This document shows, piece after piece, positions 4,873-6,717 of a DNA stretch of 6,931 nt. Position numbers and translations under genes: made by a program. The stretch comes from a virus (taxonomy: Duplodnaviria > Heunggongvirae > Uroviricota > Caudoviricetes), in IMG/VR virus record IMGVR_UViG_2529293078_000014. The stretch is one strand, 5' to 3'. Under the pieces are notes generated by a model. The model saw only the letters and a program-made list of their open reading frames with translations. It had not been told where the DNA came from and did not search any database. The stretch's first letter is position 1. Every line of letters begins with the position of its first letter.

Positions 4873-5964
4873 ATGCGTGATTACGCAAAAGTTTCTCCGC
4901 GATTCTGGCTGGGAGAAACGGGGAGAGAACTTAGAAAGGCGGGTGCAGAAGCGCAAGTTGTTGCTTTTTACCTGATGACATCCCCTCACGCAAATATGCT
5001 GGGTTTGTATTACCTGCCAGTTTTATACCTTGCTCATGAAACCGGGCTTGGTCTGGAAGGGGCTTCAAAGGGGCTTAAAAGGGCTGTTGAAGCTGGTTTT
5101 TGTAGCTATGACCATGATGCAGAGATGGTCTGGGTCCATGAAATGGCAGCCTGGCAGGTTGGGGAAACGTTGAAGCCTGGCGATAACCGTTGTGCAGGTG
5201 TCAGGAATGAGTATGCATCATTACCTGAAAACGCTTTTCTGTCAGTGTTTTACGACAGATATAAAACGGATTTCCATCTGGATGTGAGGCGGAATAATAG
5301 CCGAAATTCGGTAAGGGGCTTCGAAGGGGATTTTAAGGGGCTTCGAAGCCAAGAACAGGAACAGGAGCAGGAGAAAGAACAGGAACAGGACAAAAACACT
5401 ATGGTTCATGGCAAAAAAAACACCACGAACCAGGCAGGGGATGTTCAGACCGTCAATCCTGGTCAGCCAGCAGGCACGACACCGGAAGCCGATTCGGGCG
5501 CTGTGCAGCAGGTGATGACCGCAGGGTCGGAGCAATCACACCAACTGCAGCAGCCTGAAGCCGATTCCGCCATTCAGCGGGAAGCCGATCGGGTAGTCCC
5601 GGAAAGCACCGGGCAGTCTGTGGGACGAGTGGATTATCCGGATGTGTTCGAACAGGTCTGGCGGGAATACCCGTTGCGTGCTGGGGCAAACCCGAAGAAA
5701 TCCGCTTTCAGTGCCTGGAAGGCCAGATTGCGCGAGGGGGTGCCACCAGAGACCATGCTGGATGGTGTGAGGCGTTACGCGAGATACCTGGCGGCGACCG
5801 GGAAAGCGGGAACGGAATTTGTTCAGCGAGCGACGACGTTTTTTGGGCCGGACCGGAATTTTGAAAACCCCTGGTTGCTCCCGGTAAGCGGCACGAACAA
5901 CCAGCGTTGTGTGAATCATATTTCTGAACCGGATACCGAAATTCCGCCGGGATTCAGGGGGTGA
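4873..5964 (+). CDS. Putative phage replication initiation protein (363 aa; YdaU-like by position, functional analog of lambda O) with an internal Gln/Glu repeat linker
   Basis: Long ORF directly upstream of the DnaC-like gene. ATG at 4873 has GAGG 5 nt upstream, whereas the track start at 4762 has no Shine-Dalgarno. C-terminal motif VFEQVWREYPLRAGANPKKSAFSAWKARL resembles phage replication-initiator C-terminal domains. Family assignment is from memory. Confidence 0.65.
   Translation: MRDYAKVSPRFWLGETGRELRKAGAEAQVVAFYLMTSPHANMLGLYYLPVLYLAHETGLGLEGASKGLKRAVEAGFCSYDHDAEMVWVHEMAAWQVGETLKPGDNRCAGVRNEYASLPENAFLSVFYDRYKTDFHLDVRRNNSRNSVRGFEGDFKGLRSQEQEQEQEKEQEQDKNTMVHGKKNTTNQAGDVQTVNPGQPAGTTPEADSGAVQQVMTAGSEQSHQLQQPEADSAIQREADRVVPESTGQSVGRVDYPDVFEQVWREYPLRAGANPKKSAFSAWKARLREGVPPETMLDGVRRYARYLAATGKAGTEFVQRATTFFGPDRNFENPWLLPVSGTNNQRCVNHISEPDTEIPPGFRG
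5057..5400. repeat. Iteron-like direct repeats and a hexanucleotide repeat inside the replication gene (candidate origin)
   Basis: AAGGGGCTTCAAAG at 5057..5070 and AAGGGGCTTAAAAG at 5068..5081 (11-bp phasing); AAGGGGCTTCGAAG at 5313..5326 and 5335..5348; (GAACAG)-type hexamer repeats at 5351..5395 encoding QEQEQEQEKEQEQ; A-rich stretch at 5390..5418. Confidence 0.35.
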
Positions 5965-5970
5965 TGTGGC

Positions 5971-6717
5971 ATGAAAAACATTGCGGCAGCCGGGGTTCTT
6001 GAACGTATTCGCAGACTTGCACCACAGGCGTCGGTTCCACCGTACCGGACGGTGGAGGAGTGGCGGGAATGGCAACTTGCTGAAGGACGAAAACGCAGCG
6101 AGGAGATTAACCGCCAGAATCACCAGTTGCGGGTGGAAAAAATCCTGAATCGTTCGGGCATCCAGCCTCTGCACAGCAAATGCTCGTTTGCGAATTATCA
6201 GGTGCAGAACGACGGGCAAAAATACGCGCTGAGCCAGGCCAAATCCATAGCTGACGAACTGATGACCGGGTGCACGAATTTTGTGTTCAGCGGTAAAACC
6301 GGCACCGGGAAAAATCACCTTGCAGCGGCGATGGGTAACCGGCTGATGGCGAAGGGGCGCAGCGTGATTATCGTCACCGTGTCTGATGTCATGAGCGTGT
6401 TGCATGACAGCTACGACAACGGCAAATCCGGGGAAAAATTTTTACAGGAGCTTTGCAGTGTTGATTTGCTGGTCCTGGATGAAATAGGCGTTCAGCGGGA
6501 GACGAAAAACGAGCAGGTGGTATTACACCAGATAATTGATCGCCGGACAGCATCACTGTGCAGTGTCGGGATGTTAACAAACCTGAATCATGCCGCAATG
6601 AGTACACTTCTTGGTGAGAGGATTATGGACCGCATGACCATGAACGGTGGTCGATGGGTGACGTTTAACTGGGATAGCTGGCGTCCAAATGTCAGCAATA
6701 TGAGGGTTGTGAAGTAA
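5971..6717 (+). CDS. DnaC-like replicative helicase loader (AAA+ ATPase, 248 aa; YdaV-like / lambda P analog)
   Basis: Walker A GKTGTGKNHLAAA and Walker B DLLVLDEIG; alignable along its length with E. coli DnaC as I recall it (MKN..., SGI.PLH..CSF.NY, GKNHLAAA, VDLLV.DEIGVQ, MLTN, LGER.MDRM, FNWDS.R); starts 7 nt after the initiator stop. Confidence 0.9.
   Translation: MKNIAAAGVLERIRRLAPQASVPPYRTVEEWREWQLAEGRKRSEEINRQNHQLRVEKILNRSGIQPLHSKCSFANYQVQNDGQKYALSQAKSIADELMTGCTNFVFSGKTGTGKNHLAAAMGNRLMAKGRSVIIVTVSDVMSVLHDSYDNGKSGEKFLQELCSVDLLVLDEIGVQRETKNEQVVLHQIIDRRTASLCSVGMLTNLNHAAMSTLLGERIMDRMTMNGGRWVTFNWDSWRPNVSNMRVVK

Follow-up and report, generated by a model that had tools for sequence, protein, structure and literature searches.

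Short repeats conserved as DNA inside a prophage replication initiator gene suggest an origin of replication within the initiator frame

The initiator gene and its repeats

The 6,931-nucleotide stretch of viral DNA analysed here (IMG/VR record IMGVR_UViG_2529293078_000014, Caudoviricetes; hereafter the window) contains a replication initiator gene whose reading frame carries two clusters of a 9-bp repeat, designated A and B, followed by a tract of hexamer repeats. We found that these repeats are selected as DNA rather than as peptide, and we consider it probable that they form an origin of replication inside the gene of their own initiator, as in phage lambda. The element that hosts them is a lambdoid prophage of E. 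coli O157:H7: window positions 4700-5420 (721 bases compared) were 100% identical to a chromosomal prophage of this serotype, and of 5426 complete E. coli genomes 477 contain the region. The features of the gene and of its surroundings are listed in Table 1.

The N-terminal 160 residues of the initiator protein matched PHROG 25210 and PHROG 1701, the latter of which carries the label "DnaD-like helicase loader" (a label, not a tested function), and the C-terminal part matched PHROG 3729, "replication initiation protein". No Pfam family was matched at E<=0.01, with no match to Phage_rep_org_N or DnaD, and a sequence-profile search of the PDB returned no relative. The sole match in Pfam or NCBIfam was a weak one between the last 24 residues (aa 340-363, positions 5892-5964) and the C-terminus of DnaT (PRK02854, E 0.0019), and this DnaT-like tail probably explains why relatives have been annotated as "primosomal protein I".

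Exact copies of the 14-mer AAGGGGCTTMRAAG were found on the + strand at 5057, 5068, 5313 and 5335, the same four positions as in a preliminary description of this DNA, whereas 0.13 copies are expected and none of 200 shuffles reached four. Tandem Repeats Finder reported 11-bp arrays at 5057-5083 and 5313-5348 as well as a GAACAG array of 6.3 copies at 5353-5390, which locates the (GAACAG)-type repeats previously placed at 5351-5395. What is conserved is a 9-mer core, AAGGGGCTT, which recurs with a period of 11 bp. Two units form cluster A and three form cluster B, the middle one of which (5324-5332) had been overlooked; it reads AAGGGGATT in the window, with one mismatch. Of three related E. 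coli alleles examined, two have a perfect AAGGGGCTT at this place and one has AAGAGGCTT. A series of GGGCTT motifs at about 11-bp spacing between 5044 and 5085 had also been described. The unit at 5079 is a decayed copy. The GGGCTT at 5044 lies 16 bp out of phase, in codons that are not fixed in relatives, and we rejected it as a member of the set. Likewise, the A-rich stretch described downstream of the hexamers is real (5390-5425, AT skew 0.70), although its predicted duplex instability is modest (83rd percentile of the window).

Table 1. Features of the initiator gene and of the rest of the window. Residue numbers are those of the initiator protein.
Feature	Position	Strand	Remarks
Replication initiator gene, 363 aa	4873-5964	+	Open reading frame; RefSeq coding sequence "DNA-binding protein" at the matching position of NZ_CP038425
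N-terminal domain, aa 1-143, predicted winged helix-turn-helix	4873-5301	+	
H1	residues 25-36		AlphaFold2 model
S1	residues 45-47		AlphaFold2 model
H2	residues 50-57		AlphaFold2 model
H3	residues 60-73		AlphaFold2 model
S2	residues 77-80		AlphaFold2 model
S3	residues 85-88		AlphaFold2 model
Cluster A, two AAGGGGCTT units 11 bp apart (5057-5065, 5068-5076)	5057-5076	+	Encodes EGASKGL, aa 62-68
Least stable 40-mer of the gene, between the clusters; weak candidate unwinding site	5234-5273		Nearest-neighbour stability, 93rd percentile of the window
Cluster B, three units 11 bp apart (5313, 5324, 5335)	5313-5343	+	Unit at 5324 has one mismatch
AAGCCAAG junction and (GAACAG)-type hexamer tract	5346-5395	+	Encodes (EQ)n linker
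C-terminal module	5393-5962	+	91-92% DNA identity to seven Escherichia phages, starting exactly at 5393
DnaC/IstB-like AAA+ ATPase	5971-6717	+	Pfam IstB_IS21, E 3.9e-19
RelE/RelB (RelE/ParE-RelB) toxin-antitoxin pair	2435-2913	-	Annotated feature
cI-like repressor, 133 aa, without peptidase domain	2941-3342	-	Annotated feature
YdaS-like Cro	3451-3723	+	Annotated feature
YdaT-like protein	3707-4132	+	Annotated feature
ECs1072-family gene	4339-4794	-	Annotated feature

Conservation of the repeats as DNA

Homologs of the N-terminal domain were collected from phages of Shigella, Klebsiella, Acinetobacter, Ralstonia and Escherichia and from 41 bacterial genomes, which include Beta- and Gammaproteobacteria, Myxococcota, a planctomycete and a Gemmatimonas and span a GC content of 33-69%. 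Viable relatives include Shigella phages 75/02 Stx and POCJ13, Escherichia phage Fraca and Acinetobacter phage YMC/09/02/B1251. Nearly all of 50 relatives had two AAGGGGCTT units at gene positions +184 and +195 and two or three more near +440/+450. The cluster A codons GAA GGG GCT TCG AAG GGG CTT were the major codon in 71-100% of sequences. Over the eleven four- or sixfold degenerate motif columns of clusters A and B the median major-codon fraction was 0.90, compared with 0.46 at 43 other conserved positions of the same degeneracy (Mann-Whitney p = 4e-7; 37 non-redundant relatives covering the same GC range), and CTT made up 87-89% of the leucine codons at the motif as against 10% of leucine codons elsewhere.

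The orientation of cluster B varies among relatives. In 25 of 29 non-redundant loci it is present as AAGCCCCTT, the exact reverse complement, which preserves the DNA site but gives the peptide EAPSKPL instead of EGASKGL; the direct orientation is confined to an enterobacterial group that includes the window and to a few distant lineages, and mixed arrays also occur. Such inversion would allow clusters A and B to pair as a long-range stem, in mRNA or in unwound single-stranded DNA, with 16-20 of 20 Watson-Crick pairs formed in the inverted loci. We regard this as extremely improbable, given that only one of 25 deviating core positions was compensated, with no covariation, that the clusters are direct repeats in the window and in other enterobacterial loci and cannot pair there, and that no Rfam family was matched in the region.

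The units are also indifferent to reading frame. As a period of 11 bp shifts the frame from one unit to the next, cluster B of the window is translated as RGF, EGD and KGL, with each of its three units in a different frame. Furthermore, Acinetobacter prophages and viral contig L087 have two to five additional, non-coding AAGGGGCTT or AAGCCCCTT units directly before the start codon of the initiator gene (L005 1960-1979; L017, L018, L022-L024 and L033, at about -16 to -40 from the ATG; L087 10040-10100). These overlap the ribosome-binding region and could serve in autoregulation or as a third cluster of the origin; no copies are present upstream of the initiator gene in the window. Finally, a metagenome-assembled genome of the Burkholderiales (L041, positions 900-1400) contains a 5'-truncated and frame-broken second copy of the initiator gene upstream of the intact one, in which cluster A has 7-8 units, cluster B four units and the hexamer tract about ten GAACAR repeats. 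This copy, to be read with the caution due to such assemblies, could be an origin-only remnant or an assembly artefact.

We conclude that the repeats are DNA-level signals under selection as DNA and not as peptide, because synonymous sites are fixed, orientation flips, all three frames are used, non-coding copies occur and a broken gene copy retains the units. The preliminary description had considered that the repeats might be unconserved as DNA while the protein is conserved; we found the opposite, with the DNA kept where the peptide changes. An explanation at the level of the protein alone would have the repeats reflect a need for EGASKGL at two places and for an (EQ)n linker, as might be proposed from the occurrence of EGASKGL twice in some enterobacterial proteins and from the varying third positions of the GAR and CAR codons. 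It is refuted by the change from EGASKGL to EAPSKPL, the three frames, the non-coding copies, the fixation of rare codons and the persistence of hexamer DNA in shifted frames (see below), and we give it a negligible probability. Opposite-strand open reading frames at 5242-5535 and 5250-5399 were also considered as the cause of conservation and dismissed, as no reading frame explains cores every 11 bp.

The hexamer tract

In its usual frame the hexamer tract encodes (EQ)n with variable third codon positions (GAA/GAG, CAG/CAA), and by the codon criterion alone it could therefore be a protein-level linker. Six loci (L035, L044, L046, L157, L158 and L159) keep the tract DNA (AAGCCA(A)GARCAGGARCAG...) in another frame while the flanking domains remain in frame, giving peptides of the types KPRAGAGAG, KPGTGTGTG or ETEAEAE, and such peptides were present in many more proteins of the family. 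At the AGC CAA junction that precedes the tract, AGC is 100% and CAA 77% fixed. The tract thus looks like a DNA-level element as well, less firmly so than the 9-mers. Slippage at the hexamers, which had been predicted as a source of length variation, is borne out by the lack of one GAACAG unit (a 6-bp indel) in all three related E. coli alleles examined and by copy numbers that range from 3 to about 10 across homologs.

Domain structure and domain exchange

A model of initiator residues 1-160 was produced with AlphaFold2 (predicted local distance difference test score, pLDDT, of 85) and allows the N-terminal domain to be assigned with confidence, as a prediction, to the winged-helix fold. Cluster A encodes residues at the start of helix 3, the predicted position of the recognition helix in such a fold. 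The linker encoded by cluster B and the hexamers is predicted to be disordered (pLDDT below 50 for residues 144-160) and coincides with the mosaic junction described below. In a distant type of the family, L084, the first cluster encodes residues 18-26 and not helix 3, therefore the coincidence of cluster A with helix 3 is not universal.

The DNA identity shared with seven Escherichia phages begins right after the hexamer tract (Table 1). In phage Tritos, the one of the seven that was inspected (L154), the C-terminal domain has 92% DNA identity to that of the window and the N-terminal domain is unrelated, with no homology detected by hhalign. Tritos has repeats of its own, (R)TGTCACG with a 10-11-bp period, of which four units lie inside the N-terminal domain (1152-1190) and five more at its end (1412-1460); the two clusters are 260 bp apart and are followed by a simple repeat, (ACAGATAAAGAT)x2, and then by the shared C-terminal domain. 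The repeats thus co-vary with the type of N-terminal domain, because Tritos combines the same C-terminal domain with another N-terminal domain, other repeats and the same layout. In this natural domain swap the repeats stay with the N-terminal domain, and the C-terminal module is exchanged independently of them, together with the putative helicase-loading function; this is the classical lambdoid pattern. We also noted an imperfect inverted repeat just 3' of the hexamer tract (5402-5432, TGGTTCATGGC...CCACGAACCA) that encloses an A8 run; it sits at the start of the shared C-terminal module, and Tritos has a better-formed copy.

The same junction could be taken to mean that the conserved DNA where the two domains meet is a joint for recombination, whose microhomology serves to shuffle N- and C-terminal modules: the mosaic junction with the seven phages starts at 5393, directly after the hexamers, and widely different C-terminal domains follow the same linker DNA. 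However, cluster A lies within the N-terminal domain, 256 bp from any junction, and the 11-bp phasing, the orientation flips and the non-coding arrays upstream of the gene have no role in a joint. Since second-order selection is also unlikely to fix synonymous sites across phyla, we consider this explanation highly unlikely, and module shuffling may instead be a by-product of the conserved DNA.

Breadth of the 9-bp site

The family defined by the N-terminal domain comprises 4084 cluster representatives at 50% identity, and the 9-bp site extends beyond it. In viral contigs, 100 stretches with three tandem units were found; 80 loci were read, of which 55 encode a detectable homolog of the N-terminal domain and 25 do not. 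In nine of ten inspected loci without a homolog the arrays lay in open reading frames for other initiator-like proteins of low-GC phages, and four of five representatives of these matched PHROGs labelled replication initiator or replisome organiser. Their arrays are found at the end of the N-terminal domain and are followed by other simple repeats (GIGNGIGN, KEKEKE or KDMDMD) or by very AT-rich DNA; in L110 (3643-3728), L095 (4962-5014) and L127 (793-845), 5-8 tandem units end the initiator-like frame and a very AT-rich tract follows. Profile comparison of the window N-terminal domain with these low-GC initiators (hhalign) aligned only the motif-encoded peptides and not the domains. Across 111 distinct loci, two clusters were present in 79 and three in nine, with 2-8 units per cluster and a median distance of 256 bp between clusters.

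As N-terminal domains without detectable homology share one site, its reader could be other than helix 3, or another factor altogether. A conserved host or phage protein acting, for example, in partition, packaging or transcription would explain why the motif is identical across initiators that lack detectable N-terminal homology and across hosts from Acinetobacter to Myxococcota. Against it, the arrays occur almost only inside initiator genes, and initiators of the Tritos type, with another N-terminal domain, bear other repeats at the same places. We know of no universal bacterial protein with such a site, and we judge recognition by a factor other than the initiator to be unlikely.

A broader and more tentative proposal, which we consider possible but doubtful, is that AAGGGGCTT at an 11-bp period is a near-universal, frozen iteron used by the initiators of thousands of phages and prophages, in a range that extends from Enterobacteria and Acinetobacter to Myxococcota and low-GC phages, although the proteins have diverged beyond recognition. 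The site would lie in the frame of the initiator, in the main family within codons of the presumed recognition helix; being written into the gene of its own reader, site and reader could therefore not drift apart. The element would fit in either orientation and in any frame, and would be followed by a hexamer tract that is open in all three frames and could absorb the frameshifts caused by gain or loss of 11-bp units, besides serving as a DNA-level part of the origin in unwinding or loading.

A candidate origin inside the initiator frame

The units and the hexamer tract are selected as DNA, the repeats co-vary with the type of N-terminal domain, and the clusters of the window map to a helix of the predicted fold and to the linker. 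On this basis we propose that clusters A and B are probably iterons bound by the winged-helix N-terminal domain which, together with the AAGCCAAG junction and the (GARCAG)n tract, make up an origin inside the initiator frame, as in lambda. The 9-mers are most likely the sites to which the phage's own initiator binds at the start of genome copying. At each tandem array N-terminal domains would occupy the units head-to-tail along one face of the helix, and the two arrays, about 256 bp apart, would join by looping in one nucleoprotein complex. The DNA would then open nearby, with the purine-rich hexamer tract to the right of cluster B and the less stable segment at 5234-5273 as candidate places, and the exchangeable C-terminal domain would recruit the helicase through a DnaC-like loader for the origin to fire.

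The lambda-like origin suggested in the preliminary description is supported in that the repeats are conserved as DNA and follow the N-terminal domain; it has to be amended in that cluster A lies inside a folded domain and not in the linker, and in that repeat length, spacing and the two-cluster layout differ. The GC skew was positive throughout 4850-6100 with no turn, a result that is uninformative at such a scale, and a scan for promoters and terminators gave background levels. In relatives an AT excess of +7 to +9% was observed at the two candidate opening places, the +9% lying 70-100 bp upstream of cluster B.

Several observations weigh against an origin of this kind. The window has no strong AT-rich unwinding element, the best candidates reaching the 93rd and 83rd percentile of window stability, and no DnaA boxes were found near the repeats. 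Helix 3 of L084 lacks the EGASKGL peptide, and a single 9-bp site is common to initiators without detectable homology in the N-terminal domain. Iterons normally diverge with initiator specificity, and the constancy seen here is atypical. The window is presumably Sp4-like, an unchecked assignment judged from the ECs1072 locus name. When O157 Sakai was treated with mitomycin C, Sp4 was amplified only passively, by the neighbouring prophage Sp5 (PMC2669165).

A weak unwinding element would also fit the view that the units are initiator-binding sites for autoregulation or copy-number control, acting as an operator or by handcuffing, with the DNA unwound elsewhere in the prophage. In some relatives units do lie over the promoter and ribosome-binding region just upstream of the start codon, and no convincing AT-rich unwinding element was found beside the clusters. 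The window, however, has no such upstream copies, nothing else origin-like was seen in its 6.9 kb, and two clusters plus a simple repeat recur where the domains meet in unrelated types of initiator, matching in-gene origins (PMC7466680), so that we consider a purely regulatory role rather unlikely.

With respect to the proposed origin, a plasmid collection was searched for an autonomous replicon with this initiator, and the matches were prophages in chromosomes, megaplasmids or mislabelled chromosome fragments. A literature search by keyword and by motif string found no description of the motif, the layout or the origin type, and the strings matched only unrelated primers. On the best reading, the origin would resemble that of lambda in lying within the initiator gene and would use a type of iteron not described before.

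Comparison with known systems

The origin of lambda lies inside its O gene (PMC7466680). The element proposed here is placed similarly, within an initiator gene and in or close to the linker between the domains (PMC7466680; lambda annotation), and is also similar in that a change in repeat copy number adds or removes protein residues (PMC7466680). As in lambda O, there are two domains, the N-terminal one associated with the repeats and the exchangeable C-terminal one with the helicase loading partner. In contrast, no homology to lambda O was detected (no Pfam Phage_rep_O match; hhalign probability 0.1). The iterons of lambda, four in number and 18 bp long, form one cluster with a spacing of 20-24 bp, and origins of the lambda type have four to six iterons of 18-19 bp with internal symmetry in a single cluster, whereas the window has a 9-bp core with an 11-bp period in clusters of two and three units that are 256 bp apart, one of them in a folded domain. 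There is no clear AT-rich tract, in the place of which the window has a purine-rich hexamer repeat, and the partner is DnaC-like and not P. The element would thus work like ori-lambda while standing outside that class on protein homology, on iteron length and number and on the single-cluster layout.

The iterons of plasmids are 17-22 bp long, lie about two helical turns (~22 bp) apart outside the rep gene and diverge with Rep specificity. Our repeats resemble those of iteron plasmids (pPS10, F, R6K and RK2; RepA_N type, PDB 4pta) in being direct repeats associated with a winged-helix domain, here a predicted one, and in possible autoregulatory copies near the gene start of some relatives. They differ in the 9-bp core and 11-bp period of the units, in that they lie within an open reading frame and in that the site stays constant throughout a very large family. 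The replisome organisers of Gram-positive phages (G38P of SPP1 at oriL and Rep2009 of the Lactococcus phage Tuc2009) bind repeats in their own coding sequence, and the PHROG labels of relatives of our initiator include "replisome organizer"; the initiator has no Pfam Phage_rep_org_N match, and both repeats and hosts are different. A winged helix of the PhoB/OmpR type reads a short core every 11 bp (the pho box), head-to-tail on one face of the DNA. This likeness is a mechanistic analogy only, as PhoB is a transcription factor and no homology is claimed.

If the proposal holds, an origin and an iteron would be defined for a very large initiator family without a Pfam model, members of which were found in prophages of enterohaemorrhagic E. 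coli, in Stx1 phages of Shigella and in prophages of Klebsiella and Acinetobacter, and origins in such elements could be located by a pair of AAGGGGCTT arrays phased at 11 bp and separated by about 256 bp. The repeats also provide a clean case of dual coding, in which a cis-acting site survives inside an open reading frame by switching strand and frame. It is surprising that a 9-bp site should be constant across phyla, be tolerated in any frame and orientation and overlap the presumed recognition-helix codons in the main family. This raises the questions of how one iteron stays constant across phyla when iterons normally diverge, and whether co-resident prophages that share the site can cross-activate or compete.

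Genomic setting

The DnaC/IstB-like ATPase encoded next to the initiator gene is the likely helicase loader partner of the initiator. DnaC-type loaders are encoded by the O157 Sakai prophages Sp4, Sp10 and Sp12 (PMC2669165). In E. coli YC21-F17 (L052) and 8178 (L053) close alleles of the initiator gene are directly followed by a DUF977 gene, with no DnaC-like ATPase; a phage-encoded loader is therefore dispensable or replaced in these strains.

Upstream, the ECs1072-family gene lies antisense between the gene for the YdaT-like protein and the initiator gene, and rightward transcription to the initiator would have to cross this opposing gene. The toxin-antitoxin pair is co-oriented with the cI-like repressor gene and lies directly downstream of it. 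A full-length DicF antisense RNA was identified at 711-762 on the - strand (Rfam RF00039, 76.9 bits), adjoining homologs of dicB, ydfA and ydfB, and the prophage therefore has a Qin-like dic region.

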